Assembly: GCA_016930435.1 (NCBI GenBank)
Contig: JAFGGQ010000096.1
Coordinates: 2,662-66,661 of the forward strand
Direction: 5' to 3'
Length of the DNA: 64,000 nt
DNA from: a bacterium
GTDB taxonomy: Bacteria; UBP14; UBA6098; JAFGQG01
This document shows positions 8,412 through 43,549 of this stretch, piece by piece (position 1 is the first letter of the stretch; each line of letters begins with the position of its first letter). The notes beneath the pieces are model-generated. The model was not told where the DNA came from. It worked only from the letters and a program-made list of their open reading frames with translations, and made no database searches. Made by a program: the position numbers and the translations under genes.

Positions 8412-10257
8412 TTATAAGCGCTTGCTGGGCAGCGCCCTGTTGGCTGTGCTTTTGAGTTGTTCGCTGGTCTATTCAAATCAGTCGAAATACTGGGTCTTTT
8501 TCCGGGATAAAGGCCATCAAGGCGCTGCGGAATTGGAGGCTGCCCTGGCTGAATATGTCCATCAGCTTCCCGAACGGACCATCCGGCGGCTGGAAAAAGT
8601 GCGCAGTCAGGAAAACCTGGTGACCTATGAGGACCTTCCCCCATACCTGGAATATGTGAAAGCCATCGGAAATTCAGGGGCTGTTATTCATAGGCGCTCC
8701 CGCTGGTTCAACGGGGTTAGCGTTTCGGCCAGTGCTGCCCTGCTTAATGATATAGCTCAGTTTTCATTTGTAAGGGAAATTACCCCGGTAGTTTTTTATG
8801 GCCTCGGGGAGAGGCAGGAGGAGGCCGCCCCGCCAGGGTTATACCGGACCATCTTCACCCATTTTCTGGACTACGGGGTTTCCCTGGACCAGCTAAACCA
8901 GATCAATGTGCCTCCCCTCCACGAGCTTGGAATAAACGGGCAATCGGTACTGGTCTGCATGATGGATACCGGTTACAGAACATCCCACCGGGCATTCGAT
9001 TCCGCGGAAGTATTTGCCGCTTATGATTTTATCGATTCTGACAGCATAGTTTATGAGGAAGAGGGGGACTGGCCCAATCAGATGAACCATGGGACTATGA
9101 CCTGGTCCGCCCTTTGCGGCATCTTCCCCGGATATCTCTATGGACCCGCCTATGGGGCATCCTTCCTGCTGGCCAGGACGGAGGACCTCAGTCAGGAGAT
9201 GCCTATTGAGGAGGACAACTGGATTGCGGCAATGGAATGGGCGGACAGCCTGGGCGCCGAAGTGATCAACAGCTCACTGGGCTACCTCCGCTGGGATGAT
9301 GCTACCGGTTATGAATATTCCGATTTGGACGGTAATACTGCGCGAATCACCGTGGCTTCGGACATGGCTGCCGAGCGGGGAATAATAGTATGCACTTCAG
9401 CGGGTAATTCCGGCTCTGCCCCGGGCAGCCTGGTTACACCCGCCGATGCGGACAGCACCATTGCAGTAGGAGCAGTAGGAAGCAACGACTCCATAATGAC
9501 CTTCAGTTCCAGGGGCCCCACCGCGGACGGTAGGATAAAACCTACCTTGGTAGCCCGTGGTTCCGGTACCGCCTGCGCTACCGCATGGTCAGATGATGCA
9601 CTCGGCTCTGCGGGTGGAACCTCACTTTCCAGTCCACTGATCGCCGGCGGCTGCGCCCTTATATTGCAGGTTCATCCCGGCTGGACGCCCATGCAGGTTA
9701 TCGAAGCCCTTACCGCCACAGCCAATCTTTCCACCACTCCGAATAACGCCTATGGATGGGGTTTGCCCGATCTGCTGGGGGCTATCAGCTACCCACAAAA
9801 CGATTCCTGTACAATTTCCCTTTTTGAGGGGTGGAACATGATCGCACTACCCATTTCCGAGCCCATAAGCCCAGCGGAAAGCATCCTCCCCGAAGCCATC
9901 GGAGGGCTCTTCCACTATGACCCGGAACTTCATTCGTACTACCTGACGGATACCCTCTACCCGGGTAAGGCTTATTTTATACTTTATCCCGACGACCGGT
10001 TGATTACGTTGGAGTGTGCTATAGCCGATTCAATAGAAATTCACCTTCAGGAGGGGTGGAACATGATCGGGGGTATCCGGGCCCGGGTACCATGGGAGTC
10101 ATTCGAAACCCTGCCCCCTCATTCGCTGCTGCCCGGAAGCCTGTTCGATTTTAATCCCCTAACACTGCGATATGAATTAAAAAACGCGGTTCAGCCCGGA
10201 AGAGGATTCTGGGTTTTTGCTTTAAACGAATGCCGCTTAATAATCCACTTACCATAG
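8380..10257 (+). CDS. S8 family (subtilisin-like) serine peptidase, secreted
   Basis: Catalytic Asp (VCMMDTGY), His (NHGTMTWS), Ser (GGTSLSSPLIAGG); signal peptide; ATG at 8380 preceded by GAGG; ORF track start 8377 is TTG. Confidence 0.9.
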   Translation: MLSVKMREIVNYKRLLGSALLAVLLSCSLVYSNQSKYWVFFRDKGHQGAAELEAALAEYVHQLPERTIRRLEKVRSQENLVTYEDLPPYLEYVKAIGNSGAVIHRRSRWFNGVSVSASAALLNDIAQFSFVREITPVVFYGLGERQEEAAPPGLYRTIFTHFLDYGVSLDQLNQINVPPLHELGINGQSVLVCMMDTGYRTSHRAFDSAEVFAAYDFIDSDSIVYEEEGDWPNQMNHGTMTWSALCGIFPGYLYGPAYGASFLLARTEDLSQEMPIEEDNWIAAMEWADSLGAEVINSSLGYLRWDDATGYEYSDLDGNTARITVASDMAAERGIIVCTSAGNSGSAPGSLVTPADADSTIAVGAVGSNDSIMTFSSRGPTADGRIKPTLVARGSGTACATAWSDDALGSAGGTSLSSPLIAGGCALILQVHPGWTPMQVIEALTATANLSTTPNNAYGWGLPDLLGAISYPQNDSCTISLFEGWNMIALPISEPISPAESILPEAIGGLFHYDPELHSYYLTDTLYPGKAYFILYPDDRLITLECAIADSIEIHLQEGWNMIGGIRARVPWESFETLPPHSLLPGSLFDFNPLTLRYELKNAVQPGRGFWVFALNECRLIIHLP

Positions 10258-11574: not shown

Positions 11575-11946
11575 ATGGCTATGGCAAAACGAAAGATTCA
11601 CATATACTGGCTTCAGTTCCTTGTATTGGCGATCTGGGTAGGGGTAATGGAGGTAATTATACCCGCCGGATTTTACCCGGAATTAAAACGCTTTATCATC
11701 AATTTCCTGGTGGTTATGACCGGGATTCTGGCCTTTGAGCCGATAGCCGCGTACGTTTGGAAATATGTTGTGGTTTCCCTTGTGGCCAGCATGCTAATCG
11801 AGGCACTGCGCAAGGTGGGCATCTGGTATATGAGGAGCGGGATTTCCCTTCATCGTATCGGCGGCCCGGTACTTACCCTCCTGGTCATTACTATTGTGGC
11901 GTTCATGATTGCCCGGGCCCTGCAAAAAGATAAATTTAAGGTATGA
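11575..11946 (+). CDS. hypothetical small membrane protein
   Basis: 123 aa, 3-4 predicted TM helices, follows TlpA-like gene on same strand. Confidence 0.4.
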   Translation: MAMAKRKIHIYWLQFLVLAIWVGVMEVIIPAGFYPELKRFIINFLVVMTGILAFEPIAAYVWKYVVVSLVASMLIEALRKVGIWYMRSGISLHRIGGPVLTLLVITIVAFMIARALQKDKFKV

Positions 11947-12018
11947 AACTTATAATATACGATATAAACCGTTGATACCAGCGGTTTTTCAGGGGAACCA
12001 AAAAAATTATTTTTTTCC

Positions 12019-12046
12019 TTGCCAAAGCGTTATTTTTTTATAAAAT
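12019..12046 (+). promoter_or_regulatory. candidate sigma70-type promoter of groES-groEL (TTGCCA-N16-TAAAAT)
   Basis: Hexamers read directly; about 75 nt upstream of groES ATG; no CIRCE inverted repeat recognisable. Confidence 0.35.
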
Positions 12047-12121
12047 TATATGGCTTTATTAAAATGGACTACTATTCATACTTAGCAACATTATAAACTA
12101 TTTAAACTTAAGGAGGGATAA

Positions 12122-12409
12122 ATGAAGATAAAACCCTTATCTGACCGCATTCTGGTAAAACCCAAAGAGGTGGAAGAGGTGAAGAAGGGAGGTATAATCA
12201 TCCCTGATACTGCCAAGGAAAAGCCTCAGGAGGGTTTGGTTATCGAGGTCGGTACTGGTCGAATTACAGATGATGGGAAATCCGTCCCGATAAGCGTAAA
12301 AAAGGGCGATAAAGTACTCTACGGAAAGTATTCAGGTACCGAGATCACCATCGATGAAGAAGAATACCTGATAATGCGCGAGAGTGACATTCTGGCGATT
12401 GTGGGTTAA
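12122..12409 (+). CDS. groS: co-chaperonin GroES
   Basis: 95 aa, [14 protein letters not shown]...[16 protein letters not shown]...; SD AAGGAGGG 6 nt upstream. Confidence 0.95.
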
Positions 12410-12446
12410 TAACTGTATTCAAGGAATATTAAGGAGGTTGAAGTAA

Positions 12447-14066
<1,620 letters not shown>

Positions 14067-14082
14067 TCCTGATTACAATACT

Positions 14083-14116
14083 GATACTTATGCGCCCCCT
14101 TCGGTCTTGCCGGAGG
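14083..14116 (+). terminator. intrinsic terminator of groESL
   Basis: 12-bp GC-rich stem (CGCCCCCTTCGG / CCGGAGGGGGCG), 5-nt loop, followed by TTTCT, 17 nt after groEL stop. Confidence 0.7.
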
Positions 14117-14130
14117 GGGCGTTTCTATTA

Positions 14131-14450
14131 CCTGTATTCAGCGTTAACTGTAAAAAAACAATGGCGAAACCTCCTAAGTTTGTTGTAAACCAAGCTTTAG
14201 AAAAACATCATCAAACAAGGAGGTTTCACCTAAATTGTGAAAATAAAATGTGAAATACCAGATAAAAAAGTAATCGAAATTTTATTAGTGAAAAGATAAA
14301 GAAGAATTTAGGCCAAAGTATTTATTATTATTATTCTAATTCAAATAGGTTAACTAATTATTTTTAGATACTTACTTCGTATTATTCTGTCTTTCTAAAG
14401 TCTCTGAGTATCAGGTTTACCTCGCCGCCTTACCGAAATTCTATGAATTA
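14131..14450 (+). repeat. noncoding dispersed element Rep-A, copy 1 (core 14131-14311; weaker similarity continues to about 14450)
   Basis: About 80% identical to 32138-32490; contains long hairpin with arms GAAACCTCCT (14165-14174) and AGGAGGTTTC (14217-14226), i.e. an anti-SD-like and an SD-like arm; the spurious ORF 13951..14253 lies on top of it. Confidence 0.6.
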
Positions 14451-14470
14451 AATAATATAATGATCAACGC

Positions 14471-14512
14471 GGATTACGCGCGGCTATAAGCCGTCGCCTG
14501 CAACCCGTTGTT
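14471..14512 (-). repeat. about 42-nt structured element R, copy A (immediately 3' of GNAT gene)
   Basis: cgcgcgGCTATAAGCCGTCGCCTGCAACCCGTTGTT aligns with 15330-15371 (about 33/42 identical); imperfect hairpin CGGCT-tat-AGCCG extended by GCG/CGC with a bulged A. Confidence 0.5.
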
Positions 14513-14518
14513 ATGTGC

Positions 14519-15283
14519 CTATCGCTTGCCGACGATTTTATCGAACCGACTCTCCATGCATACGCTTATGTCTGTAGTGATGAACTTCCCATCCAAGAAA
14601 AGGCTGAATATCGTTGCCGGAGATGGACACATCTGAGCCTCTTCCATGGTTTCGAGCTTAATTGCTTTGAGCGAAAGACCCCGATTCTTAGCAGTCTCAA
14701 CGAGTGAGTTCTCTACGTGGTATTCGGAATACGGGCAACGGTTTGAATAATAGACAACAATACCGTTTTGATCCGGGCATGTGCCGCTTCGCACCGATTG
14801 GTTGAAATAGGGTTGGGCGACTGATGACTCAAAGTCAATGGATATGAGACTGAAACCCGACGGTACACTCTCAATTACCTCAAACCCTTGCCTCAGCAAC
14901 CATTTCGTATCACTCATGAAATGGTATTTCTTCGTGCCTACAACGGTCACAAGACCACTTTTGCCCTGGTTCTTTGCTGCTTCAATTGCCTCGTTTAGCA
15001 AGGCTTTGCCATGGCCGTGGCCTTTGAACTTCCCGGAAACCCAAAAACACCCGATCATTATATAATTCGGTGCCGTTACTGGAACCCAGGATTTTTCAGC
15101 CGGGCCATACTCGATAAACACTTTTGCCCGTTCATCAAGTCGGCGAAACACGTATCCGTTTTCAAATTGCGCTCTGAGCCATTGTTTCTTTAGCTCGTAG
15201 CTCTTAGCACATTTCTTGTCGGAAAAGGCACAACAAATGTGTTCATCCTTGATGTTCTCTTTTGTTAACGTCACATACGTCAT
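14519..15283 (-). CDS. GNAT family N-acetyltransferase with C-terminal YoaP-like domain
   Basis: GNAT core (...IMIGCFWVSGKFKGHGHGKALLNEAIEAA...) followed by Cys-rich YoaP-like C-terminal domain (...GIVVYYSNRCPYSEYHV...). Confidence 0.7.
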   Translation of the reverse strand: MTYVTLTKENIKDEHICCAFSDKKCAKSYELKKQWLRAQFENGYVFRRLDERAKVFIEYGPAEKSWVPVTAPNYIMIGCFWVSGKFKGHGHGKALLNEAIEAAKNQGKSGLVTVVGTKKYHFMSDTKWLLRQGFEVIESVPSGFSLISIDFESSVAQPYFNQSVRSGTCPDQNGIVVYYSNRCPYSEYHVENSLVETAKNRGLSLKAIKLETMEEAQMCPSPATIFSLFLDGKFITTDISVCMESRFDKIVGKR

Positions 15284-15329
15284 TTCTCATCTCCCCTAAC
15301 GTGCCGCCCAAAGCGGGGCGAAGGGTTAA

Positions 15330-15371
15330 GTATCACACGCAGCTATCAGCCGTCGCGTGCATCCGGCTTGT
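15330..15371 (-). repeat. about 42-nt structured element R, copy B (overlaps last 8 codons and stop of DUF1835 gene)
   Basis: cacgcaGCTATCAGCCGTCGCGTGCATCCGGCTTGTT; same hairpin architecture as copy A; followed on the gene strand by ACTTAAC...small hairpin...GTTAGGG just before the GNAT start. Confidence 0.5.
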
Positions 15372-16257
15372 TCGGCAATGCTGTGATTCTGAAGTCCCCA
15401 AGTGACAGTTCACTTTCCCATTGGGGCAATCTATCTGCTGGGCCCTGGATTTGCACGAGTGGAGGCGTACGGCCTGCAAGTCCGTTGATCTTGGCCCACA
15501 ACGTCGTGTCACCCCAGAACTGTGGCGGTGTATCAGCGGATGCAACGGATGCAAGGATGCTGCCAGGCGTTTCGTTACCTTCCCGGATTGCTGTGAGGGC
15601 AAGGCTTTCAAGTCGTCCCAATCCACCTTTCTGGTCGGGTTGTTCCTGTATCCATCGTGCCACGGCGGCGGGAACCCAGGGCAAGGGAGCCTTGATAATC
15701 TCCGACAGTTTTTCGAACAAGGCAGCATCCTGTGTTGCGAATGCCTTATCGACTACCTTGGCGAATCTGAATTGCTCCTCGGTAACAGCGCTTCGCCTGC
15801 CATAGAGCGATGCAAGTTGGTCGGGCCGCAGTTGCCCGAGCCCGTTGAACGGTACTATTCCGGGGAATGTATCTACGCAGATGAGTTCCACGTTGACGGC
15901 GTCCTTTAGGTGCAGGCATGTCATAATATGGGCGAGCATGGACTGGTCAAAAAGGCATGCATCGAACCACAGGACGATATGCTCTCGGGTGGTGGATTCC
16001 GCCAGCCTTCGGTACTGATTCCGCAGTGTCTCAAGAACAAGCTGCTTGTCCAATCCACCTGCGGTAGCTTCTTCCAGAAAGACCGCCCGGGCATTAAGAA
16101 TATCCTCATCAGGCCATCCGGGATGTCGAGGCCCCTCATACATAATGTCGTGCCAAACGAACACTTCCCCGGGAAGCCCGGCCCTTGCAAGGCTTCCTCC
16201 TGCGCTGTCACCACTTGTGATGTGAAGAGTGTTCTCCATTTCTTCCTCAGCCAACAT
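15346..16257 (-). CDS. DUF1835(/DUF3658)-type protein
   Basis: N-terminal LHITSGDSAGGSL motif characteristic of DUF1835; GC and GC3 clearly higher than neighbours; TGA stop. Confidence 0.6.
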   Translation of the reverse strand: MLAEEEMENTLHITSGDSAGGSLARAGLPGEVFVWHDIMYEGPRHPGWPDEDILNARAVFLEEATAGGLDKQLVLETLRNQYRRLAESTTREHIVLWFDACLFDQSMLAHIMTCLHLKDAVNVELICVDTFPGIVPFNGLGQLRPDQLASLYGRRSAVTEEQFRFAKVVDKAFATQDAALFEKLSEIIKAPLPWVPAAVARWIQEQPDQKGGLGRLESLALTAIREGNETPGSILASVASADTPPQFWGDTTLWAKINGLAGRTPPLVQIQGPADRLPQWESELSLGDFRITALPNKPDARDG

Positions 16258-16413
16258 CTCCGAGTATCACTTGCCTCGAAGGCTTTCGGAAATTAGTTGC
16301 TCTTGTTACTGACATTAAATATCTCATATCTTGCCATATTTGTTTATCATAAAATACCATTGTTGTCAATGTGGAAACTCTGGTTAGAAGGCAATTATAG
16401 CAATGTTATGAAT

Positions 16414-16764
16414 TCAATTACCATAGTTCAAGTAATCTTCCAAAACAAATATTTCTATCTCTTTAATTGACTTAAGATTCCTATCGTTTGTAATAAAAAG
16501 ACTAGCACTGTTTTCGATACACGTAGCAATTTGTATTGCATCAGGGGTTCATACCCCATATTGTGCCCTGATTTCCGCAGCCTTCTCTGCAATAATCGGG
16601 TCAATTGAGAAAATGACAAAATTAGCTGAATTAAGAAGAAAATGTTTGTATTTTTCTACTAGCTTCGTTCTAGATTGTCTCAGAGGCAGTGAAAGAACTT
16701 CTAACAAAGTAATTACTGATGAAAAGGCAAGATAATTGGAATCATCCTTTATTATTTTTCCCAA
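16414..16764 (-). pseudogene. PIN-domain (VapC-like) toxin gene interrupted by in-frame TGA at 16546-16548
   Basis: TTG start overlapping antitoxin stop; N-part ...FSIDPIIAEKAAEIRAQYGV then TGA, then same frame continues TPDAIQIATCIENSASLFITNDRNLKSIKEIEIFVLEDYLNYGN (canonical PIN C-terminus); TGA is used as a genuine stop elsewhere in the window (e.g. 26171, 15346). Confidence 0.6.
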
Positions 16765-16867
16765 TGACTATTGATATTTCCGAAATTAATTTTGAAAAAA
16801 GAACTAGTTTTTCATTATCGTTAAGTTTTGATATCTTTTTATAGATTGTTTCAGTTGCATTGTTCAT
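16742..16867 (-). CDS. DUF2281-like antitoxin (41 aa)
   Basis: MNNATETIYKKISKLNDNEKLVLFSKLISEISIVIGKNNKG; stop overlaps start of the PIN gene (GATGA junction); not in ORF track (too short). Confidence 0.5.
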   Translation of the reverse strand: MNNATETIYKKISKLNDNEKLVLFSKLISEISIVIGKNNKG

Positions 16868-16920
16868 ATTAAATCATCTCCGATTTTATCCCGAAGTCTA
16901 TATTCTTTGAACGGAAAGAC

Positions 16921-18426
16921 TTATCTTAATAGAATTACTTTCTGGGTAGTCTCATACTGGTTTACCCGGAAGTAGCAAAAGTATATCCCGGAGCCAAATT
17001 CCGGTGTAGCTTCCCACTTTAACTTGTAATTCCCGGGCAGTAGATATTCCAGTGGGTAAGATTTGGCCACCCTACCGGAAAGGTCGTAGAAAATCCTCTT
17101 TACCCAGGAGCCGCGGGTGATCTGGTAGTCAATGGAAACATTGGAATTAAACGGATTGGGATAAGCGTTGATATTTATGATCAGTATTTCCCGATTAATA
17201 GCACCGGGGATGTATTCATCGGCGCCAATGTCCCAACCCCTTCCGAAAGGCCTGGTGTCCCCCTCAATATCGATATATGGGGCCATCAATGTATCACCCC
17301 AGGGGGAAAAAATGTATTGGGATCCGGTGTTTATACAGCGCGAGCTGTCAGAGAGATGATAGAGAGTATCCCGGAAATAGGGATCCGTTCGAAAAATTCC
17401 CCGCTCCCAGATAAAAATACCCGCAAAGGTTTCCCGAAAACACTTGGTGCTGTCCAGATTAGTATGACTGACGTAAACTGTGCATGGATATACATTCTCA
17501 CCGTAAGCATAATAGCGAAGATAGATTTCGTCACCCCGTAAAGCCTGATTCCCCCACATTATGTTATTGAAGCTTTCAATATTCACCTTCTGGTAACAAT
17601 AAACAGCGCCTCCCACTGAATCGGCGCAATTGTCGGCGATGGTATTATTGATCATGGTTGGATAGCAGTTCCATTCACAAGAAATTCCCCCGCCCGATTT
17701 TACCGAATGATTTGATACTATCATATTATTTACAATCCGGGCAGAAGACCTGTAGCATGCGATCCCACCGCCATCTTTGGAAGCCGTGCTATGAGCGATG
17801 TAATTATCTGAGATCACCGGATCGCACTGATTACGGCAACAGATAGCCCCGCCTTCCCCATTATCAGCAACGTTAAAATAGAATCGGCAGCCTTTTATAA
17901 TTGGACTCGATAGATTTAAACAACAGATAGCCCCACCCTTGTCCGCATAGCAATTTCTGAAAGTGCAGTTGATGATAGAGGGGCTGCTCTCATAGCAGTA
18001 GATAGCCCCTCCGAAACGCTCTGTAGATGTCCCAAGGGCATTCCCGTACTCGAAATCGCAGTAAACAAGGCTGCAGAGTTCGGCATTCCGTTCAAAACGG
18101 ATACCCTGAAACCCGCCACTGGTATCGGTTAATACGGTATCCTCCACCTTGAAAAGGATGTGCTCCCAATAGGTACCCTGTGCGTTTATCACCGCTTCAT
18201 CCCTGACCAGTATCCTGTAATGCCCCCGGAAAATTACTTCCACACCCGGCCCTATATTCAGTGTGCTGTCGTTTGGAATGGCTAAATCCCCAATAACCAC
18301 GTAGGGAGAACCGGGAGCCTCCCATTGCCCTGAAACATTACCCGTTACAAAGGTGCTGTCCCCATAAAGGAAATTTATTGAGAAAAAAATGGCTATAATT
18401 AAAATTAACCATCCCTTTTTATTCAT
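16921..18426 (-). CDS. right-handed parallel beta-helix repeat protein with T9SS C-terminal sorting domain
   Basis: Signal peptide; repeated GGAIYC/GGAICC beta-helix rungs; C-terminal ...AYPNPFNSNVSIDYQI...GIYFCYF... Por-type CTD. Confidence 0.75.
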   Translation of the reverse strand: MNKKGWLILIIAIFFSINFLYGDSTFVTGNVSGQWEAPGSPYVVIGDLAIPNDSTLNIGPGVEVIFRGHYRILVRDEAVINAQGTYWEHILFKVEDTVLTDTSGGFQGIRFERNAELCSLVYCDFEYGNALGTSTERFGGAIYCYESSPSIINCTFRNCYADKGGAICCLNLSSPIIKGCRFYFNVADNGEGGAICCRNQCDPVISDNYIAHSTASKDGGGIACYRSSARIVNNMIVSNHSVKSGGGISCEWNCYPTMINNTIADNCADSVGGAVYCYQKVNIESFNNIMWGNQALRGDEIYLRYYAYGENVYPCTVYVSHTNLDSTKCFRETFAGIFIWERGIFRTDPYFRDTLYHLSDSSRCINTGSQYIFSPWGDTLMAPYIDIEGDTRPFGRGWDIGADEYIPGAINREILIININAYPNPFNSNVSIDYQITRGSWVKRIFYDLSGRVAKSYPLEYLLPGNYKLKWEATPEFGSGIYFCYFRVNQYETTQKVILLR

Positions 18427-18628
18427 AAAGAACGCCCCTTTCCGGCTAAATCATCATTAACTTCACAAACAACAAAGGAATACTTCTCTATTTATGTTAT
18501 ATCATAATATAAATATAAAGAAAACGCAATAAAAAAAGTATATTTATTATTTTGGAGAGCCTAACCCTGAAAAGAGCTTCATAGATTTTTGGAAACCAGC
18601 AGCCTTTTTACCTGAGGATTTCAGGAAC

Positions 18629-19834
18629 CTACAGGTTATCCGCTAAAACCTTGACAATATTTTCTCTATTTGTTAAACTATTATTAAGAATAATGGCGAA
18701 GCACAGGGTTTTCCCGAGATTGCTTGAATCGAAATAACCGGCCAGGGTATTCACATTGTTGAGGGTTCCGGTCTTTGCGTAGATCCCTTCATTCATGGGA
18801 AGCAGCTCCCTGTAGGGGAAGAAGGATCGCAGGAGAGTACACATCTGGAGGGCGGTTATCTGGTTCTGACGGGAAATACCGGATCCCTCGGTAATGGAAA
18901 AGGTTTCATCTTGAAATTTCTCGCGGAGGTATTCAGTAAGGGCATCCGTCCCCTTGCGCAGTGTAGCCGGGGGACCGTATTTCCGGGCGCCGAGGTAAAG
19001 TAAAAGCTGGTTAGCTATGAGATTGTTGGAATATTTAAAGAGACCCTGCAATACATCCTCCAGATCTTTCGATGATTCATGAACATAAAAGACACTTAGG
19101 TATTCAGGCACTTTCCGTTTCTGTATCCCGCCTTGAAATCTAATTCCATTCTGTTTGAATATCGCCTGTAGCAATTCCCCCGCGTATTTAAGCTGTAGTT
19201 CGGTGTCCGAAGCCAAATTGATCCTGAAAGTACCCTTTTTCCCCTGTGCCAGGGCTAACCTTTCCGCGGTATCGGTCAGGGGGGTTTGCTCCTCGGCGCT
19301 GCTCACCTTGTTTACGGAGGAGACGGATACAAAGATTGTATTGAAATTGACCAGCAAAGCCCCGTTCAGGGCATCATAGGGATTGAGACTATGTGAAATG
19401 CCGGGGATCACGATATGCGGTGCAAAGTAAGTATCATCCAGAAAGAGACCATTAAGCGGCTTCTCCTCTAGCAGGGGTGCTATTTCCTGGGCTATCAGGG
19501 AAATTTCCTCGGAGACAAAGTAAGGATCGCCATAACCTTTGACATAGAGGTTTCGAAGGCTGTCCAGATAAAATTGGGTTGGAAATCTAAATTGCGTGGA
19601 ACCGATTTCATGGATAAAAGCCTCAGCAGTGGCTATTTTCAGGATTGAGGCAGGTACCAGGAGTTTGTTTTCCCGAAGGGAATACAGGATGTTCCCATCC
19701 AGGTCGGTGACGCATACAGCGCCATCTCCGGCTAATTTCTCTACCTGGTTTTCCCATTCTTCCCGGCCGTTTGATCGACCCCAAAAAAGAAAAAGAAAGA
19801 TAAGGGCTGTAAGCAGCCTAAAGCAGTTTAACAT
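18629..19834 (-). CDS. D-alanyl-D-alanine carboxypeptidase/endopeptidase (PBP4/S13-like serine hydrolase)
   Basis: Signal peptide; SxxK active-site motif (PASILKIATA); overall PBP4-like length and composition. Confidence 0.7.
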   Translation of the reverse strand: MLNCFRLLTALIFLFLFWGRSNGREEWENQVEKLAGDGAVCVTDLDGNILYSLRENKLLVPASILKIATAEAFIHEIGSTQFRFPTQFYLDSLRNLYVKGYGDPYFVSEEISLIAQEIAPLLEEKPLNGLFLDDTYFAPHIVIPGISHSLNPYDALNGALLVNFNTIFVSVSSVNKVSSAEEQTPLTDTAERLALAQGKKGTFRINLASDTELQLKYAGELLQAIFKQNGIRFQGGIQKRKVPEYLSVFYVHESSKDLEDVLQGLFKYSNNLIANQLLLYLGARKYGPPATLRKGTDALTEYLREKFQDETFSITEGSGISRQNQITALQMCTLLRSFFPYRELLPMNEGIYAKTGTLNNVNTLAGYFDSSNLGKTLCFAIILNNSLTNRENIVKVLADNL

Positions 19835-19861
19835 GGAAATTTTTCTGCAATAAATTGACGT

Positions 19862-20734
19862 TTATCTAACCTGGGTCAGTTTATAGCCTTTATCCTGCAG
19901 GAGTTTTATTACCCCTTCTGAGCCGCCCAGATGACCAGCGCCGACCGCAACAAAGACATTGCCTTGCCGGATAAATTTCTCCATTCTGGAAGCCATCACA
20001 TAATTGCGCCGGGTAATCAAATTATCATAAAAATCCTGGTAATCTTCCTCCACCAGTTCCTGGTTCATGAACCTGGTCAGGGCTTCTACATCACCCCGGA
20101 GGTAAAGCTCAATCATCTTTTCCAGGACAACTTCAAACTGCTCGTATTCGTTCACGGACTGTTCCAGCATAATGATCTGTTCCTCCAGGCTAAGCCCGTC
20201 GAAAACGACGATCTGTTCTTTGATGGTTTCCAATCCTCCGGTTTCCTTTTCCATTTCCTGCGCTTTTTTATAAAGCATCTGGTCCATGGGGTCACCCGCA
20301 TCGGGCGGCAGGGCGATAAGACTGAACAATACCCAGGGTTTCAGGCTCTCAAACATCATAATATCCTGCCCCTTCTCCGTGAGAATATCGCTTACCTGTT
20401 GGTAGAGTTCGGGGGTCATCAGATCGCTTAGGGTTTTACCATCCGGGAGGAGCATCAGGGTTCCCAGCTCGGCCATGTTCACATCTCCAAGGTCCACTTC
20501 CATTACATACGCCGAAGCCTCATCGAAAACACGGGTAACCGATTCGGGCAGTTCGGTGACCCTGGGATCGGGCAGATGGATGGTACCGAAAAGGTAGGTT
20601 GGTTTATCTCCATCGATTTTCCATAGCAAAGGACCGGGTTCCCTTGTCAGTTGGCCTTTGGTAGAGCAACCCCCTAAAATCAGCAGTACCAGAAATAACC
20701 AAATTATCCATTTTGGGTATTTTGTTTTTAACAC
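19862..20734 (-). CDS. TraB/GumN family protein
   Basis: Lipoprotein-like N-terminus; C-terminal ...VFVAVGAGHLGGSEGVIKLL... TraB/GumN hallmark. Confidence 0.7.
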   Translation of the reverse strand: MLKTKYPKWIIWLFLVLLILGGCSTKGQLTREPGPLLWKIDGDKPTYLFGTIHLPDPRVTELPESVTRVFDEASAYVMEVDLGDVNMAELGTLMLLPDGKTLSDLMTPELYQQVSDILTEKGQDIMMFESLKPWVLFSLIALPPDAGDPMDQMLYKKAQEMEKETGGLETIKEQIVVFDGLSLEEQIIMLEQSVNEYEQFEVVLEKMIELYLRGDVEALTRFMNQELVEEDYQDFYDNLITRRNYVMASRMEKFIRQGNVFVAVGAGHLGGSEGVIKLLQDKGYKLTQVR

Positions 20735-20777
20735 TATGCCTCCATAAATTTTTTAGAATTTTGATAGAAAAGAACAT

Positions 20778-21428
20778 TTACATTTTCTTGCCGGCATTTC
20801 GCCAATCGGCCAGAAATTTTTCGATGCCTATATCGGTTAGGGGATGTTTGAACATTTGTTTTAGCACCTTGAATGGTATTGTAGCGACATCGGCGCCCAT
20901 CAGGGCGGCCTCCAGTACATGGAGTGGATGGCGTACGCTAGCCACAAGGACTTCAGTTTCAAAAATATAATTATCATAAATAGTGACGATGTCGTTCACG
21001 ATGTCCATTCCCTGGTGGCTGATATCGTCCAGGCGGCCGACGAATGGGGACACGAACCGGGCACCTGCCTTAGCCGCCATCAGGGCCTGAAGCGGCGAAA
21101 AGATCAGGGTCACATTCACCCCGATACCCTCTCCCGAAAGGGTCTTGGTTACCCTCAAGCCATCCGGGGTAAAGGGCACCTTTATAACGATATTGCTGTG
21201 AATACCGGCCAGATCACGGGCCTCCCGGAGCATCCCGTCCACCTCCTCGGAAACTACCTCCGCACTGATTGGACCGTCAACGATCTCCACAATCTGGTTC
21301 AGCAGTTCCTTATAGTCCCTGGACTCTTTGGCTACCAGGGAAGGATTGGTGGTAACGCCATCCAATACTCCCCACGAAGCCGCAGCTTTTATCTGCTCAA
21401 TATTTGCGGTGTCGATAAAAAATTTCAT
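20778..21428 (-). CDS. tal: transaldolase / fructose-6-phosphate aldolase family (short form)
   Basis: [16 protein letters not shown]...GVTTNPSLV...; 216 aa TIM-barrel short transaldolase. Confidence 0.85.
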
Positions 21429-21521
21429 GAAAAATCCTCCCTTCGTTAATTTACCTGGTGACTGAATATATTTATATAAATATTCCGCTATTTTTCAAAG
21501 TCAATAATAATCCACGTATAT

Positions 21522-22250
21522 TCAATAATTAACCTTAACCAGGGTCAAGCCTTGGGGTGGAGCAAATCCGAAATGAACCTTTCGCTCTCCGGTGTACAGT
21601 GTTTCTTCGAACTGCTCAGGGGATATCTTACCCCGGGCAACCTCGATCATTGCTCCGACCAATCCGCGCACAAGACCATGCAAGAAGCGGTCGCCCTCGA
21701 TCTCATAAACTACCGAGTCCTGTTCCAGTATCCAGATCGACCGGTAAATACTGCAGTTCCGATTTTCTTTTTCCCTGATGTTTTTTGCAAAGCCACCCAT
21801 ATCATGTGAACCCGTCATTTTCTGTGCCAGGAGTGGAAGGAGGTCATAATCGATCTTCCACTTTAGGTACCAGCTATAATCACGCAGGAGCGGAAATTTA
21901 GTCAGGTTTATGCTATAGCGGTATAGTTTGCTTAAAGCTGAAAACCGTGCATTGAAGTCTTCCTTCACGTATTCCGCGTTTCGAATAGCGATATCTTCGG
22001 GGAGGAAGGCGTTGAGACGTTGCATCAGATTTATGGGGGAGGTTCGACGTTCGGTGAGGAAGTTTGCTACCTGCCCCTGGGCATGAACGCCTGCATCGGT
22101 GCGCGATGCGCCGGTTAACCTTAGCTGCGTTCCCATAAGCAGCGATAATTTTTCCTCGATAATCCCCTGAACGGTCCTGTGGTGAGGTTGTTTTTGCCAT
22201 CCCTGATAGGCAGCTCCGTCATATTCTATGGTCAATTTAAGGTTATACAT
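21522..22250 (-). CDS. truA: tRNA pseudouridine(38-40) synthase TruA
   Basis: ...LTGASRTDAGVHAQGQVANF... catalytic Asp motif; 242 aa. Confidence 0.9.
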   Translation of the reverse strand: MYNLKLTIEYDGAAYQGWQKQPHHRTVQGIIEEKLSLLMGTQLRLTGASRTDAGVHAQGQVANFLTERRTSPINLMQRLNAFLPEDIAIRNAEYVKEDFNARFSALSKLYRYSINLTKFPLLRDYSWYLKWKIDYDLLPLLAQKMTGSHDMGGFAKNIREKENRNCSIYRSIWILEQDSVVYEIEGDRFLHGLVRGLVGAMIEVARGKISPEQFEETLYTGERKVHFGFAPPQGLTLVKVNY

Positions 22251-22256
22251 TGCGCT

Positions 22257-23051
22257 TTAGAAGGTCATTTTAAAATAAACCAATCCGGTCAGCAAGGATC
22301 CGGTAAGTAAGGTGAGTATCCAGTCGCCGGTATGGTATTTGAGGGGTTTATAATAAGTACGGGGATGGTCGGGGGTGTATGCTCTGACCTCCAGGGCAAG
22401 TGACAGGGTTTCTGCTCTTCTGAAGGATTGAGCAAAGAGGGGGATAATCAGGGGGAGCAATGCTTTGATGCGCTTGAGCAAGCCCCCTCCAAACCGTGCT
22501 CCCCGGGCCAACTGGGCCTTGCGGGTGTTCTCAATCTCATCTATCATGGTAGGGATGAACCGGAGGGCGATCATCATCATCAGGGTAAAATTGCGGACCG
22601 GTATCCCCCTTCTGTTAAGGGGCTCCAGAAACCTTTCCAGGGCATTTGTAAATTCGATGGGTTGCGTAGTCCAGGTTAAAAGCGCTCCGGAAAATACCAG
22701 TAGAAACAGACGCAGAGAAAACAGCAACCCGTTCCAGGCACCCTCCAGTGAAACGGAGAACCAGTGCCATTGATAACCCCCTTCTGCCGGTGTAAATATG
22801 AGATGCACTAAAAAGGTTATATAGAAGAACAACCGGAAGGTACGAACCAGGGTCAAAAGATTCACAAGATGCAGTTTCGCCATGATCATCAATATGAAAA
22901 GGACCAATAAACCCGCCAGATGGGTTTCAATACTGTTGAAGAGAATAAAAAAGCTGACTAATACCAGAAAAAACAGGAATTTGCTCCGGGGATCCAGGCG
23001 GTGAATTACGGAATCACGGGGAAGATATTGTCCCAAAGTAAGGTTTCTCAT
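22257..23051 (-). CDS. ecfT: energy-coupling factor transporter transmembrane component EcfT (CbiQ family)
   Basis: Polytopic; conserved ...ARGARFGGG...RIKALLPLIIPLFAQSFRRAETLSLALEVRAY... EcfT C-terminal motif; classic ecfT-truA adjacency. Confidence 0.8.
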   Translation of the reverse strand: MRNLTLGQYLPRDSVIHRLDPRSKFLFFLVLVSFFILFNSIETHLAGLLVLFILMIMAKLHLVNLLTLVRTFRLFFYITFLVHLIFTPAEGGYQWHWFSVSLEGAWNGLLFSLRLFLLVFSGALLTWTTQPIEFTNALERFLEPLNRRGIPVRNFTLMMMIALRFIPTMIDEIENTRKAQLARGARFGGGLLKRIKALLPLIIPLFAQSFRRAETLSLALEVRAYTPDHPRTYYKPLKYHTGDWILTLLTGSLLTGLVYFKMTF

Positions 23052-23298
23052 AGAATTTATCTTAAAAAGGATAAAGTATTCATACTGTTCTTAAGAAACA
23101 AGGAATTTTAAATATATCTTAACTCAACAAATTGCCAACATAATTTTACTGAAATTTAGGTCTGTCAATTTATTATATTTTGGAATCAATACTTTCTTTT
23201 TTAAAAAACTTAGAAAAGTGATATTATGGTTTGTTTTTGTTTATACTCAAATTCCTTCTTTTCTTGACATGCCGGCGGTTTATATTTAATTATTTTTT

Positions 23299-24039
23299 AT
23301 GACCACTTTCGATGAAAGGCGCACACTGGAGGAGCAATTATCCGTTGCCTTGGAGCGTCATCTTTTCAAGAATGACGGTAATCCGTTTTACATTTGCCCG
23401 ACGGGTATTGAATTCGTGCTGGAACATTCTGAAGGGAGGGAGTTTCTCAGTCGATTACGGGGGCATACAGATGCGACCGATCCCACAGGTACCTCATTTA
23501 TTTACTTTCCGGACCGCATTGTGATAGATACGGTAGGCAGGAGGGCTTTCTGGTTGGAGCTGAAGGTAATGAAGCGCAGCCCCCGGGTGAGCACAAAGAT
23601 GATCCTTAAGCGGTCTCATCCCCGGTATGACAATATTCATCCGGAGAAGTGGGTGAAACTTCAGCCCTTCCTGATCCCGGAGTACTGGGGAGTAATTGAG
23701 CGCCGCGCTCTGGATAATTACCGGCGGCTTTGTCGCTCTATTGGTGACCGCTCACTGATGCTGATCGTTTACGCCGACTTTCATCCCCACAGACTGATCG
23801 CTATCTGGGAGCAGGATATGGTCAAGCTTTATGAGCAGGACCGTGAGCTGTTCCCGGACAGTAACCGGGAAAACGTTCAAAGTACCCGTGGTTCGGGAAC
23901 CCCCTGGGCGAATGTATCGCTTGGCAATTTTCTGCCCCTGGAAAGTTTTTTGGTCAAAAATACCGCCAACAAGGAGTACTGGAAAAGAAATCAACCGGGT
24001 GAAAAGATGCGTATGATTTTGGGAGAATTGGGGGGATAG
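23299..24039 (+). CDS. hypothetical protein, possible PD-(D/E)xK nuclease fold
   Basis: ...FIYFPDRIVIDTVGRRAFWLELKVMK... contains hPD...(14 aa)...ELK arrangement; no other recognisable domain. Confidence 0.4.
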   Translation: MTTFDERRTLEEQLSVALERHLFKNDGNPFYICPTGIEFVLEHSEGREFLSRLRGHTDATDPTGTSFIYFPDRIVIDTVGRRAFWLELKVMKRSPRVSTKMILKRSHPRYDNIHPEKWVKLQPFLIPEYWGVIERRALDNYRRLCRSIGDRSLMLIVYADFHPHRLIAIWEQDMVKLYEQDRELFPDSNRENVQSTRGSGTPWANVSLGNFLPLESFLVKNTANKEYWKRNQPGEKMRMILGELGG

Positions 24040-24067
24040 ACCGGACCCCCGCAAGGGAGCCCGGCCA

Positions 24068-24179
24068 CCGTTTAAACCGGTTTAATTTAGCCGAAATTAA
24101 CTATAATGCCTGAAATATCGAAAAACAGGTTCCTCAAATATATAACTCATATTCAACATTATCAACTGCATTTTACGGG
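24068..24179 (+). mobile_element. MITE-like dispersed repeat, family B copy 1
   Basis: Shares CCGTTTAAT...CTATAATGCCTGAAATATCGAAAAACAGG...TTCATCAAATATATAACTCATATTCAACATTATCAACTGCATTTTACGGG with 29884-29986 and 49318-49499; imperfect terminal inverted repeats CCCGTTTAAT / ATTTTACGGG. Confidence 0.55.
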
Positions 24180-24186
24180 TAAAAAG

Positions 24187-26109
24187 CTACTTCAATAGGA
24201 CCATCTTCCGGTTGAGCGTCCCGCCGGCTGACTCCAGCCTGTAAAAATAAATACCTCCTGTAACATCGTTCCCGGATTGATCCAGGCCATCCCAGAGTAT
24301 CTCGCCATTATAATTTTTGAGGTCGAACATACGCACGGTCTGACCATCGATTGCGTAAATGGTCAGCTTGCCGTCCTGAAACCGGGGATGTTCATAGATG
24401 ATCCGTGTAGCGGCATTGAATGGGTTGGGAACATTATAGAGCAGGCTATAATCAGAGGGTAATGCTGCCCTTTCTCCAATAGTCTCCATGCTCAGGTCGC
24501 ATTCAGCTGCCTGCCAGATGAGATAATTGTTATCATCCTGGATAAATGCTACGATGATTATTTCATCCTCATCCCAGGCGGATTCAATCGTAAAGCTAAA
24601 CTCATATTCCCGGGATTCGTCCCGAACCAGGTCCAGCTCCGTTCCCTCGAAATCGGTTACCACGTCGCGAACTGTATGATATAAATGGGTTTGGGGAACA
24701 TCGCCAGGATTCCAGCTATAGGCTATCTCACTCTCGATCACTGCCAACCGGAGAAACTGGTTATTCAGGGCCGGCGGATCATTGTCCATCGTGACGTTAA
24801 CCGTAAAATGGACGTCTCTGCCCTCGATGGAATTCACCGAAAGGTTGAGCATATAAGGACTGCTTAGTTCCTGTATATCCCGGAAAGCCCCTAAGTACTG
24901 GGGATAGCCGTAATCGTATGATTCGGGGTATCCGCCGCTGAACTCTATTATCCCGTTTACCCATACATCGGGGTAGCCGGAGACATCGTAGTAGTCTGCA
25001 GCCGGCACGGCATCAATCAGGTAATATGGATCTGAACCGAAAGACAGGGTGGTATGGTAAACAATTATTATCACTGAATCCTCCAGGTCTTCATAAAGCA
25101 TGTGCAGTCCTTCGGATGCCCGTGGGCAATAATAGCATCCCACCGCAGTAAATTCCTGGAAGATGGGTTGCATGTAATTGGTATATGCATACAGAGAGAC
25201 CTGCTGGGTATCGTTACCCGCAAATTCATCTGTTGTCAGATCCGTGAATGCTTTAATCTCGTATGCATCACCGGGATTGGCCATGAAACTGGCGAATTCA
25301 ACACTTCTTGAAGCCCCCGGGGCTAATGCGGAAATAGTCTGTGTATCAGCCATCACAACCGTTCCGAACCTTTCCACCAGGCAGATCACATCGAATGTCT
25401 CGGTATTTATCCCGGGATTCATGAATACCGCCTCCGGGGCGAGGTATTCACCAGGGCTGATAAAAATATCATCGTATATGATCTCATTGCAGGATACATC
25501 ATGATCCAATGGAACCATGATGGCAACGTCGTCGATATACCAAACATCGCCGTCGGCGCCTTCATATTTAAAAGCCACATAGATGGTGCCTGAATGCCCG
25601 GTGATAGTTATAGGAGGAACCGGGTTCCATTCGTAATCAGAGAAGGTATCGATCTCGGCAATCTCTACAAAATCACCGTCTCCGGGGTTCCCGGAACCGT
25701 CAGACACCCACACTCCATGATAACGGTAATCAAATGTATAGAGAGTGTACTGGAAAAAGTTCAGAATAGGATTTATTCCCAACGGAACGGTCAGTGGAGG
25801 TGAAACCAACCATCCTTCAAGATTGGAGATATTCCAATTGTGAACATAGGAATAATCGCCCGTATTCGCTTCGTAGTTAGTAGGTTCCCATTCCACGGCA
25901 GTAGCGCCAAGGACATAAACACTCCAGTCATCACGCTCAGATGCAGTCTCAAAACTGGTGATATAAGGCAGGGTTTCATCGAGAGGAGCAAAACTACGAT
26001 CTGGTTCAGGATGGTTAACCAGGCTGCTTGAACCCACCGTAAGCTTATCGGCCCATAACAAGCCGACCAGGAATATTACAATTACCATCACAAAAATCAG
26101 CTTTTTCAT
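24187..26109 (-). CDS. secreted hypothetical protein with T9SS C-terminal sorting domain
   Basis: Start chosen at MKKLIFVMV (AAGGAG 8 nt upstream) rather than ORF-track 26154; C-terminal ...YNVPNPFNAATRIIYE...GGIYFYRL... CTD. Confidence 0.6.
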   Translation of the reverse strand: MKKLIFVMVIVIFLVGLLWADKLTVGSSSLVNHPEPDRSFAPLDETLPYITSFETASERDDWSVYVLGATAVEWEPTNYEANTGDYSYVHNWNISNLEGWLVSPPLTVPLGINPILNFFQYTLYTFDYRYHGVWVSDGSGNPGDGDFVEIAEIDTFSDYEWNPVPPITITGHSGTIYVAFKYEGADGDVWYIDDVAIMVPLDHDVSCNEIIYDDIFISPGEYLAPEAVFMNPGINTETFDVICLVERFGTVVMADTQTISALAPGASRSVEFASFMANPGDAYEIKAFTDLTTDEFAGNDTQQVSLYAYTNYMQPIFQEFTAVGCYYCPRASEGLHMLYEDLEDSVIIIVYHTTLSFGSDPYYLIDAVPAADYYDVSGYPDVWVNGIIEFSGGYPESYDYGYPQYLGAFRDIQELSSPYMLNLSVNSIEGRDVHFTVNVTMDNDPPALNNQFLRLAVIESEIAYSWNPGDVPQTHLYHTVRDVVTDFEGTELDLVRDESREYEFSFTIESAWDEDEIIIVAFIQDDNNYLIWQAAECDLSMETIGERAALPSDYSLLYNVPNPFNAATRIIYEHPRFQDGKLTIYAIDGQTVRMFDLKNYNGEILWDGLDQSGNDVTGGIYFYRLESAGGTLNRKMVLLK

Positions 26110-26170
26110 ACAAAACTCCTTCTTTAAATGTTGTTGCCCCTCTCTGAACACCAATGGGCATTATAACTCA

Positions 26171-29879: not shown

Positions 29880-29883
29880 TAAT

Positions 29884-29986
29884 CCCGTTTAATTCAGTTG
29901 AAGTTTACTATAATGCCTGAAATATCGAAAAATAGGTTCATCAAATATTTAACTTATATTCAACAATATTAACTGCATTTTACGGG
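29884..29986 (+). mobile_element. MITE-like dispersed repeat, family B copy 2
   Basis: 103 bp, see copy 1. Confidence 0.55.
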
Positions 29987-30024
29987 ATAATTACCCAAAC
30001 AACCCCTAAAAGCAAGGGAACATT

Positions 30025-43494: not shown

Positions 43495-43524
43495 TTGATC
43501 TTGTCCCCAAAATCTTATATTATT
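43495..43524 (+). promoter_or_regulatory. candidate promoter of the DUF2281-mazF operon (TTGATC-N15-TATATT)
   Basis: Hexamers read from sequence; GGAGG at 43538-43542, ATG at 43550. Confidence 0.3.
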
Positions 43525-43549
43525 ATTTTTACAGCATGGAGGTAACATA

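Follow-up and report, generated by a model that had tools for sequence, protein, structure and literature searches.

Genomic setting of the two copies

The stretch of DNA analysed as a whole, 64 kb in length and referred to here as the window, contains a noncoding, AT-rich repeat that is present as two copies in the same orientation. The copies sit in intergenic gaps of 452 and 617 nt, the largest two in the window, most intergenic gaps being shorter than 200 nt in this compact genome. The copies, their most conserved blocks and the nearest features are the following:

14092–14122, plus strand: canonical intrinsic terminator of groEL, 5 nt before copy 1 begins
14127–14312, minus strand: copy 1 of the repeat, 186 nt, 29% GC; found by blastn, repeat finder, local alignment and covariance model R1
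14277–14312, minus strand: most conserved block in copy 1, 35/36 identical, minus-strand 5′ end of the module, predicted to be single-stranded
32133–32405, minus strand: copy 2 of the repeat, 273 nt including an 89-nt insertion; found by blastn, repeat finder, local alignment and R1
32370–32405, minus strand: most conserved block of copy 2, containing TAAAAT (32372–32377 of the plus strand)
32494–32579, minus strand: tRNA-Leu(CAA), separated by 88 nt from copy 2, which follows it on this strand

Copy 1 is flanked by the groEL terminator and by the 3′ end of a GNAT-YoaP gene (14519–15283, minus strand), which lies 206 nt upstream of it on the minus strand, and copy 2 by the start of a DUF2914 gene (32025) and the 3′ end of tRNA-Leu (32494). 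Each copy thus follows a same-strand gene, GNAT-YoaP in the case of copy 1 and tRNA-Leu in that of copy 2. In the minus-strand intervals between these genes and the module, no other strong terminator-like hairpin was found, save for a weak AU-rich one that belongs to a mini-repeat within copy 2. The original prediction had placed copy 1 directly after groEL, in agreement with its start 5 nt past the terminator, and had described copy 2 as abutting tRNA-Leu, from which it is in fact separated by 88 nt.

To the right of copy 1 lies an islet consisting of GNAT-YoaP, DUF1835 and a T9SS protein, which had been taken for the only obvious foreign islet of the window. However, copy 2 also adjoins a low-GC stretch of orphan genes (GC 0.385–0.40), among them a split DeoC-like ORF and the DUF2914 gene, itself almost an orphan. 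T9SS sorting domains are found among the neighbouring ORFs and fit an assignment to the FCB group.

Extent and conservation of the repeat

Comparison of the two copies by blastn yielded 79% identity over 143 nt (14132–14273 versus 32138–32280; E 1.6e-29) and 97% identity over a further 36 nt (14277–14312 versus 32370–32405), and the repeat finder returned the same three blocks with the start at 14127/32133. Local alignment of the copies scored 136 versus 22 ± 2.8 in shuffles. The sequences GCGAAACCTCCTAAG, CAAACAAGGAGGYTTCACC and ATTTTATTAGTGAAAAGATAAAG occur exactly twice each in the window, with approximately zero occurrences expected for the two longer ones, so that the conserved blocks originally noticed are indeed shared by the copies.

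The edges of the repeat are sharp. On the right, similarity ends at 14312/32405; the adjoining tails, 14313–14450 and 32406–32490, show no significant likeness (score 22 versus 16.4 ± 2.5, equalled in 19 of 500 shuffles), the sole match between them being a T-rich run, and the upstream flanks of both copies are unrelated in local alignment as well. The earlier description of copies about 80% identical in the same orientation thus holds for the 79% measured over 143 nt, whereas the spans of 320 and 353 nt given at the time reduce to units of about 186 and 273 nt. With a GC content of 29% for copy 1 and 28% for copy 2, these units fall below the 46.6% of the whole window.

Conservation is distributed unevenly over the module. 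The arms of the hairpin stem described below are identical in 12 of 13 positions each and the block at the minus-strand 5′ end in 35 of 36, compared with 26 of 32 for the 5′ flank as read on the plus strand and 31 of 42, plus indels, for the interior of the hairpin. A conserved stem with a variable loop fits what would be expected for a structural element.

Coding potential

Six-frame comparison of the copies (blastx, tblastx) gave similarly low amino-acid identity throughout and no favoured frame. A small ORF following an SD-like site on the plus strand occupies the same frame in both copies (MVEIKYEKVDKK.. and.VKIKCEIPDKK..); it starts with ATG in copy 2 and with ATT in copy 1, differs between the copies by about 8 nonsynonymous versus 1 synonymous change, and its peptide ends differently in copy 2 owing to the insertion. 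A 100-aa ORF at 13951–14253 overlaps groEL and is not kept in copy 2, in line with the earlier remark that the apparent ORF of copy 1 is not conserved. The proposal that neither copy is coding is borne out by the six-frame comparison together with the nonsynonymous excess. A coding element was rejected, as no frame is favoured and nearly all differences in the small ORF are nonsynonymous, and so was the remnant of a pseudogene, since the repeat shows no similarity to any ORF of the window. The element is noncoding.

Hairpin structure and strand

Each copy contains a long hairpin, which is followed on the minus strand by a run of seven uridines and a further conserved segment:

14159–14237, minus strand: copy 1 hairpin, 13-bp stem 14163–14175/14218–14230, 42-nt interior
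14152–14158, minus strand: U7 tract of copy 1 (plus strand: A7), immediately following the 3′ end of the extended hairpin
14132–14150, minus strand: conserved 12-mer CTGTATTCAGCG and small 4-bp hairpin of copy 1, 3′ of the U7 tract
32169–32237, minus strand: copy 2 hairpin, 13-bp stem 32169–32181/32225–32237, 43-nt loop
32158–32164, minus strand: U7 tract of copy 2, 4 nt after the stem in the minimum-energy fold
32138–32156, minus strand: conserved 12-mer CTGTATTCAGCG and small 4-bp hairpin of copy 2

The long hairpin reported earlier is present in both copies; its arms extend to 13 nt and its loop measures 42 nt in copy 1 and 43 nt in copy 2. The stem, read on the minus strand, is GGUGAARCCUCCU/AGGAGGUUUCGCY, and in copy 1 it is extended by CAAU/AUUG (14159–14162/14234–14237); the interior of 42–43 nt is only partly paired. 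The stems differ between the copies by two substitutions, both of them one-sided transitions that keep G·U pairs on the minus strand and produce A·C on the plus strand. Altogether, three G·U pairs on the minus strand of copy 2 correspond to A·C mismatches on its plus strand. Single-sequence folding of copy 1 gave −29.1 kcal/mol (z −4.76) for the minus and −25.1 kcal/mol (z −5.46) for the plus strand; for copy 2 the values were −24.5 kcal/mol (z −3.47) and −16.9 kcal/mol (z −0.78), respectively, the plus-strand fold of this copy being no better than that of shuffled sequence. The consensus fold of a hand-built alignment showed the same asymmetry (−23.05 on the minus versus −15.15 on the plus strand), with the 36-nt block unpaired on the minus strand. 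As only two sequences are compared, the stem offers no true compensatory covariation; the two G·U-preserving changes correspond to an estimated p of about 0.1 for the main stem. Judging from these folding models, the hairpin is probably maintained as RNA on the minus strand only.

Originally, the hairpin had been read on the plus strand, as an anti-SD-like sequence pairing with an SD-like one. In such an RNA, the anti-SD arm (CCUCCU) would sequester the SD (AAGGAGG) of the small ORF of 16–21 aa, and the element would represent either a thermometer-like switch or a gene for a small peptide that is gated at translation. The genome does use AAGGAGG as an SD, namely for groES and groEL with a spacing of 5–9 nt, and strong SD sequences precede 8 of 47 genes versus a background of 2.7%. 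Furthermore, the ATG of copy 2 follows the motif by 10 nt, the frame is the same in both copies, and the plus-strand hairpin of copy 1 is stable (z −5.46). These points are opposed by the ATT found in copy 1 in place of the ATG, by the ratio of about 8 nonsynonymous to 1 synonymous difference, by the peptide end altered through the insertion in copy 2 and by the lack of any reading frame that stands out. In addition, the copies share no plus-strand promoter, their upstream flanks being unrelated, there is no downstream gene on the plus strand to be regulated, and the plus-strand hairpin of copy 2 carries three A·C mismatches (−16.9 kcal/mol, z −0.8), while the minus-strand hairpin is stable in both copies. 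Since the hairpin is kept on the minus strand only, the SD/anti-SD reading is unsupported, and we consider it very improbable.

Nested insertion and other repeat families

The indel between the copies, put at roughly 95 nt in the original prediction, measures 89 nt and is explained by the nested insertion of another repeat into copy 2:

32281–32369, no strand assigned: insertion in copy 2, 89 nt, holding a 54-nt mini-repeat at 32292–32345
44207–44260, no strand assigned: second 54-nt hairpin mini-repeat, inverted, 93% identity to 32292–32345

The insertion is flanked by an approximate direct repeat (TAAAAAAGCAAGCA/TAAAAAACAGGCA), whereas the corresponding sequence is single in copy 1. The mini-repeat within it forms the weak AU-rich hairpin mentioned above, and its second representative lies where a MazF-like gene and an efflux-pump gene face each other with their 3′ ends. 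A third noncoding family of approximately 105 nt (D2) has copies at 24073, 29880 and 49313–49489. The genome thus carries several small intergenic repeat families.

Homology searches and comparison with the nearest relative

A covariance model built from the two copies (R1), run with filters off, recovered them on the minus strand with 180 bits (copy 1) and 176 bits (copy 2), and no third copy was found by it in the window, in the loci of relatives or in the outgroup. A further match of R1 was copy 2 itself, in the Logan assembly of the same sample. Two Logan contigs stop at 32230 and at approximately 14351, which does not prove the existence of extra copies.

At the gathering threshold, a search of the whole window against Rfam 15 detected tRNA alone, and at E ≤ 10 both regions gave only chance-level scores of 13–19 bits versus gathering scores of 40–70. 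This agrees with the earlier statement that the element resembles neither tmRNA nor SRP RNA, RNase P RNA or 6S RNA, as no Rfam family was matched. Exact-pattern scans for the hairpin yielded no hit in GTDB genomes, none in JGI metagenomes and one unrelated hairpin (L017) in IMG/VR. Exact scans for a conserved 20-mer yielded none in GTDB genomes or IMG/VR and 12 matches in metagenomes, which comprise the seed only and are hence attributed to chance. A blastn search of the element against phages and plasmids did not produce any match. Homologs elsewhere or in related genomes, the lack of which had been named beforehand as pointing to a lineage-specific segmental duplication, were accordingly not found within the exact-pattern scans and about 60 kb of related loci. 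This absence of homologs is weak evidence, because the scans demanded exact matches, the relatives' loci cover only about 60 kb and the lineage is barely sampled.

Judged by its GroEL, the organism belongs to an uncultivated lineage. The nearest relative is GCA_016935765.1 (86% identical); the remaining matches are at about 75%, with Zixibacteria as the commonest named source. In GCA_016935765.1, groEL is directly followed by the block CbiQ-truA-TAL-TraB-S13, which in the window is inverted and located at 18.6–23.1 kb, beyond the GNAT-YoaP/DUF1835/T9SS islet. The PfkB-NadC-BirA-PASTA-tRNA-Leu region of this relative is syntenic with the window up to the tRNA, beyond which an unrelated AT-rich noncoding segment of 420 nt leads to an HTH_3 gene at a contig end; the Smith–Waterman score of this segment against the element equals that of shuffled sequence. 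The element is therefore absent from GCA_016935765.1 at both syntenic sites, downstream of groEL and of tRNA-Leu, and both copies lie at synteny breakpoints relative to this genome. As nothing similar is present at its tRNA-Leu or groEL sites, the nearest relative gives no sign of evolutionary constraint on the element. The outgroup (L020) has a wholly different neighbourhood downstream of groEL and is uninformative for polarising the rearrangement.

These findings bear on the possibility that the copies arose by neutral or selfish duplication, be it a lineage-specific segmental duplication or a low-copy intergenic repeat of the BOX/ERIC/REP kind without dedicated function. The hairpin would then be conserved through recency alone, and any terminator activity would be incidental. 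In line with such an origin, no homolog was found in the scans, by blastn, at the loci of the nearest relative or with the covariance model, and the copies coincide with synteny breakpoints versus that relative. Moreover, the 64 kb contain no fewer than two further families of noncoding repeats, namely the 54-nt mini-repeat and the D2 family of about 105 nt, and one of them has inserted into copy 2, which implies that the genome tolerates the spread of repeats. The conservation of the stem (24/26) is likewise not significantly above the 79% background (p of about 0.07, an estimate). A transposing element in particular is difficult to reconcile with the lack of terminal inverted repeats (ends matching in 7–8 of 11 positions) and of target-site duplications (flanks that differ). 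Beyond this, the 35/36 block is unlikely versus the 79% background (p of about 0.002 before correction for window choice), the substitutions in the stem are strand-consistent, and the retention of two AT-rich inserts of 186 nt in a compact genome hints at some use. Taken together, we regard duplication without function as a serious alternative, though a somewhat doubtful one, and judge the view that the hairpin persists merely through recency to be just as doubtful.

Tests for mobility and site-specific integration

The element had also been suggested to mark an integration or hitch-hiking site. Pfam scans of 20 neighbouring ORFs (14–36 kb) detected no integrase, transposase or excisionase. 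The 25-mer at the 3′ end of tRNA-Leu occurs a single time in the window with up to 3 mismatches allowed, so that no duplicated tRNA end is present, and the tRNA itself lies outside the repeat. Terminal inverted repeats were not evident, the ends CTGTATTCAGC and CCTAAATTCTKC matching in 7–8 of 11 positions, which is estimated not to be significant, and no target-site duplication was found, as the flanks of the two copies differ. Sequence reading revealed no conserved GTTRRRY/RYYYAAC pair of an integron attC site common to both copies, and the 62-nt gap after the DUF1835 ORF contains no repeat. The islets are situated on opposite sides of the copies (on the right for copy 1, on the left for copy 2), and the intervening 18 kb contain core genes syntenic with groESL in GCA_016935765.1. 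The suggestion of an integration site is thus not upheld. A MITE or other non-autonomous transposon was dismissed for want of terminal inverted repeats or a target-site duplication, and an integron attC site for want of the core sites. A tRNA-targeting integration site was rejected as well, given that neither an integrase nor a tRNA fragment was found and that a bracketing palindrome occurs at copy 2 only.

This palindrome, a 14-nt near-palindrome GGCATTT(T)AAATTGC, overlaps the last 4–5 bases of the tRNA and recurs at 32105–32118, so that it brackets copy 2; it is absent near copy 1. At copy 2 it constitutes an unexplained detail.

At the level of DNA, the module could be what is left of the end, or of an arm-type region for recombinase binding, of integrative elements directed at tRNA-Leu and a second site, or else a different protein-binding or recombination site that promoted the local rearrangements. 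Such a role could account for the presence of low-GC orphan genes (GC 0.385–0.40) and a tRNA gene beside copy 2, for the genes bordering copy 1 that are missing from the syntenic region of the relative and for the recurrence of RTGAAAA-like motifs within the module, as seen by sequence reading. The tRNA-Leu of the nearest relative also precedes AT-rich noncoding DNA (420 nt) and an HTH_3 gene, and the near-palindrome at the tRNA 3′ end and at 32105–32118 would likewise be in keeping with it. Nevertheless, the absence of an integrase, transposase or excisionase at 14–36 kb, the unduplicated tRNA 3′ end, the distance of 88 nt between repeat and tRNA and the absence of the palindrome near copy 1 all speak against a DNA-level site, as do the islets on opposite sides of the copies, the core genes in the 18 kb between them and the lack of matches in phages, plasmids and IMG/VR. 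A DNA-level site is therefore considered very unlikely.

A candidate 3′ trailer module on the minus strand

Among the readings considered, we tentatively favour a 3′ trailer or small-RNA-like module that is encoded on the minus strand and would end in a Rho-independent terminator, although its chances are put at somewhat below even. In 5′ to 3′ order, such an RNA would comprise the single-stranded 36-nt block, a U-rich linker (carrying the 89-nt insertion in copy 2), the 13-bp hairpin and the U7 tract. The hairpin together with U7 may terminate the upstream transcription unit in a Rho-independent manner, and the conserved trailer in front of the hairpin may give rise to a small RNA of about 125–330 nt. 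Processing of the tRNA or mRNA precursor could release this RNA, or it could be transcribed from a weak promoter of its own, for which the −10-like TAAAAT would be a candidate. We infer from this arrangement that the trailer may be transcribed, that transcription may terminate at the hairpin and that the trailer may have a regulatory role. With similar reservation, the two copies can be seen as paralogous versions of one noncoding module that is specific to the lineage and acts on the minus strand. A small-RNA family, as contemplated in the original prediction, is possible, then on the opposite strand to the one first proposed.

As to the promoter, sigma-70-type promoters are present in the genome, and TAAAAT serves as the −10 element in a promoter-like site before groES. 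The same motif lies inside the conserved block (14279–14284 of the plus strand in copy 1), where the candidate promoter has a −10-like TAAAAT but a weak −35; a consensus promoter scan detected no promoter common to both copies. As to the terminator, canonical intrinsic terminators are used in this genome, for example after groEL and at 55474–55445. A simple terminator scan had a loop limit of 8 nt and therefore did not report the hairpin of the module. The hairpin combines a stable stem with an upstream gene on the same strand, as intrinsic terminators do, but lacks their short loop of 3–8 nt. Against a terminator also stand the interior of 42–43 nt, far above a textbook terminator loop, and the 4-nt gap between stem and U7 in copy 2. 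Moreover, a plain terminator does not account for the conservation found over some 30 nt beyond the U7 run (26/32). The position of a tRNA 3′ external transcribed spacer is occupied by copy 2 only, 32158–32493 lying between the tRNA 3′ end and the hairpin with its U7.

A more specific version of the minus-strand trailer would make the copies paralogous regulatory RNAs, one being the 3′ trailer of tRNA-Leu and the other that of the acetyltransferase mRNA, in which the 36-nt block might act as a seed or sponge and the stem embeds the anti-SD-like ACCUCCUU. Such RNAs, without relatives in Rfam or public assemblies, would belong to an uncultivated, Zixibacteria-related FCB lineage; we consider this version unlikely.

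If the minus-strand reading were true, the element would be among very few candidate small RNAs or terminator modules in a poorly sampled candidate-phylum lineage and would join the regulatory RNAs that stem from tRNA trailers or 3′ UTRs. No long-standing question hinges on it, and it may be seen as a modest lineage-specific curiosity. Its main value lies in annotation, as the analysis accounts for the window's two largest intergenic gaps, revises the element's strand and boundaries, identifies the indel as a nested repeat and reveals several families of small intergenic repeats in the genome.

Comparison with known systems

Dispersed hairpin repeats are known from several bacteria and include REP/BIME and ERIC in enterobacteria, BOX and RUP in pneumococci and Correia elements in Neisseria. 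Repeats of the REP/ERIC/BOX type are short, noncoding and located in 3′ intergenic positions, and they can be co-transcribed and act as terminators or stabilisers. The module resembles REP/BIME, ERIC, BOX, RUP and Correia elements in being short, noncoding, AT-rich and hairpin-forming, in its 3′ intergenic position and in its occurrence beside other repeat families. In contrast to them, it was found in two copies in 64 kb and shows neither terminal inverted repeats nor target duplications nor sequence similarity to these elements.

Riboregulators that sequester the SD, as well as RNA thermometers, are represented by ROSE and fourU. The plus strand of the module is comparable to them in that its CCUCCU arm pairs with AAGGAGG 10 nt before the AUG in copy 2, but differs in having no downstream gene, no start codon in copy 1, a plus-strand hairpin that is lost in copy 2 and no match in Rfam.

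With intrinsic terminators the module shares a 13-bp stem (hairpin of −24 to −29 kcal/mol) that is followed by U7 and located downstream of a same-strand gene. Unlike in these, its interior measures 42–43 nt instead of a loop of 3–8 nt, a 4-nt spacer precedes U7 in copy 2, and conservation extends beyond the hairpin, by about 110 nt on its upstream and 30 nt on its downstream side.

Two groups of small RNAs come closer to a trailer of this kind. One comprises RNAs derived from the 3′ external transcribed spacer of tRNAs, such as 3′ETS-leuZ (work of 2015, as summarised in PMC8383071), and the other the rrA, rrB and rrF sRNAs, which are near-identical paralogs at the ends of rRNA operons, in front of a terminator (PMC8144298). 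Copy 2 would parallel 3′ETS-leuZ by its place in the 3′ trailer of tRNA-Leu before the first strong terminator-like hairpin, from where it would be co-transcribed and could be released. The parallel to rrA/rrB/rrF lies in the occurrence of paralogs at the ends of transcription units in front of a terminator. The module differs from these RNAs in showing no sequence similarity to them, in that copy 1 follows a protein-coding gene and in the length of the trailer, which at about 330 nt is much greater.

The element may thus be best described, still tentatively and with slightly less than an even chance of being correct, as a lineage-specific terminator-bearing intergenic repeat or a candidate 3′-derived small RNA, the general kind of which is known. 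By analogy, its function would come closest to that of the 3′ETS-leuZ-type RNAs and the rrA/rrB/rrF sRNAs, while its lifestyle resembles that of BOX, ERIC and REP-type repeats.

Surroundings of the Two Element Copies

Comparison of positions 11575-26653 of the window with the groESL region of the nearest relative (locus L001 of GCA_016935765.1) revealed that the neighborhood of the block containing the DMT_6-like gene, groES and groEL differs between the two genomes. While the gene order in the nearest relative is A-groESL-C, in the window groESL is followed by the element (the two-copy noncoding repeat), the islet, the inverted C block and the inverted A block, with A and C being fused at ~23051-23299. 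In an outgroup, the surroundings of groESL are arranged differently again from both.

Two independent Logan contigs from the same organism as the window end within or close to the element copies. L003 (SRR13394437) stops at position 32230, within the hairpin of copy 2, and L004 at ~14351, just beyond copy 1. These stops could reflect low coverage, polymorphism or further copies of the element elsewhere in the genome.

At the tRNA-Leu site, a 14-nt near-palindrome, GGCATTT(T)AAATTGC, was found twice:

32105-32118, near-palindrome
32484-32498, near-palindrome

One occurrence includes the final bases of tRNA-Leu, the other lies ~365 nt away, and copy 2 of the element is therefore bracketed by them. 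A search for an equivalent near copy 1 yielded none there. Possible explanations for the near-palindrome are protein binding, an att-like remnant and chance.

The original prediction regarded the islet beside copy 1 as the only obvious foreign one. This does not hold, as a second, previously unlisted islet of low GC content (0.385-0.40) adjoins tRNA-Leu at 29079-32025. Its DUF2914 gene is nearly an orphan, as 5.8 billion proteins yielded a single, partial homolog, and a 266-aa ORF in the same stretch has no Pfam match. Two neighboring ORFs (30025-30615 and 30622-30855) may represent a split pseudogene, since the second shows a weak DeoC match (E 0.0045, under the gathering score) and the first none. 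Low GC content (0.38-0.40) also marks a small accessory cluster at 42710-44118, which comprises a DUF559 endonuclease-like ORF and a PemK/MazF-like toxin gene preceded by a 75-aa ORF.

In the tRNA-Leu region of the nearest relative (L018), an inserted two-ORF cassette separates the PASTA gene from tRNA-Leu, and ahead of this cassette lies a ~45-nt direct repeat (GTAGCCGCAAKCTTTAGATTGCGCYGTTGAGGATTGAATA; ~9903-9950 and ~10006-10053). The hotspot is the same as in the window, but the intergenic repeat is another one.

Further Repeats in the Window

Noncoding repeats other than the element and the near-palindrome:

32292-32345, hairpin-forming 54-nt mini-repeat, nested in element copy 2
44207-44260, second mini-repeat copy, opposite orientation
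24073-24179, D2 copy 1, ~105-nt noncoding repeat
29880-29986, D2 copy 2, ~105-nt noncoding repeat
49313-49489, D2 copy 3, with a nested 67-nt insert

The mini-repeat occurs twice in the window, with 93% identity over 54 nt, and its second copy is flanked by the convergent 3′ ends of a MazF-like gene and an efflux-pump gene. Because the hairpin and the U-rich run after it are oriented as the upstream gene at both sites, the mini-repeat looks REP-like or terminator-like.

At 61306-61702, a 543-aa ORF (60539-62170) contains an imperfect tandem repeat (period 18 nt; a 127-nt unit in seven registers, with 61-75% identity) that probably encodes a repetitive protein segment.

The third noncoding repeat family of the window, D2, is ~105 nt long, and its copies 1 and 2 are 88% identical. 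A promoter-like site (TTGATA-N17-TATATT) is conserved on its minus strand. The ends of D2 (CCCGTTTAAT...ATTTTACGGG) resemble terminal inverted repeats, and the family may be a MITE with a promoter.
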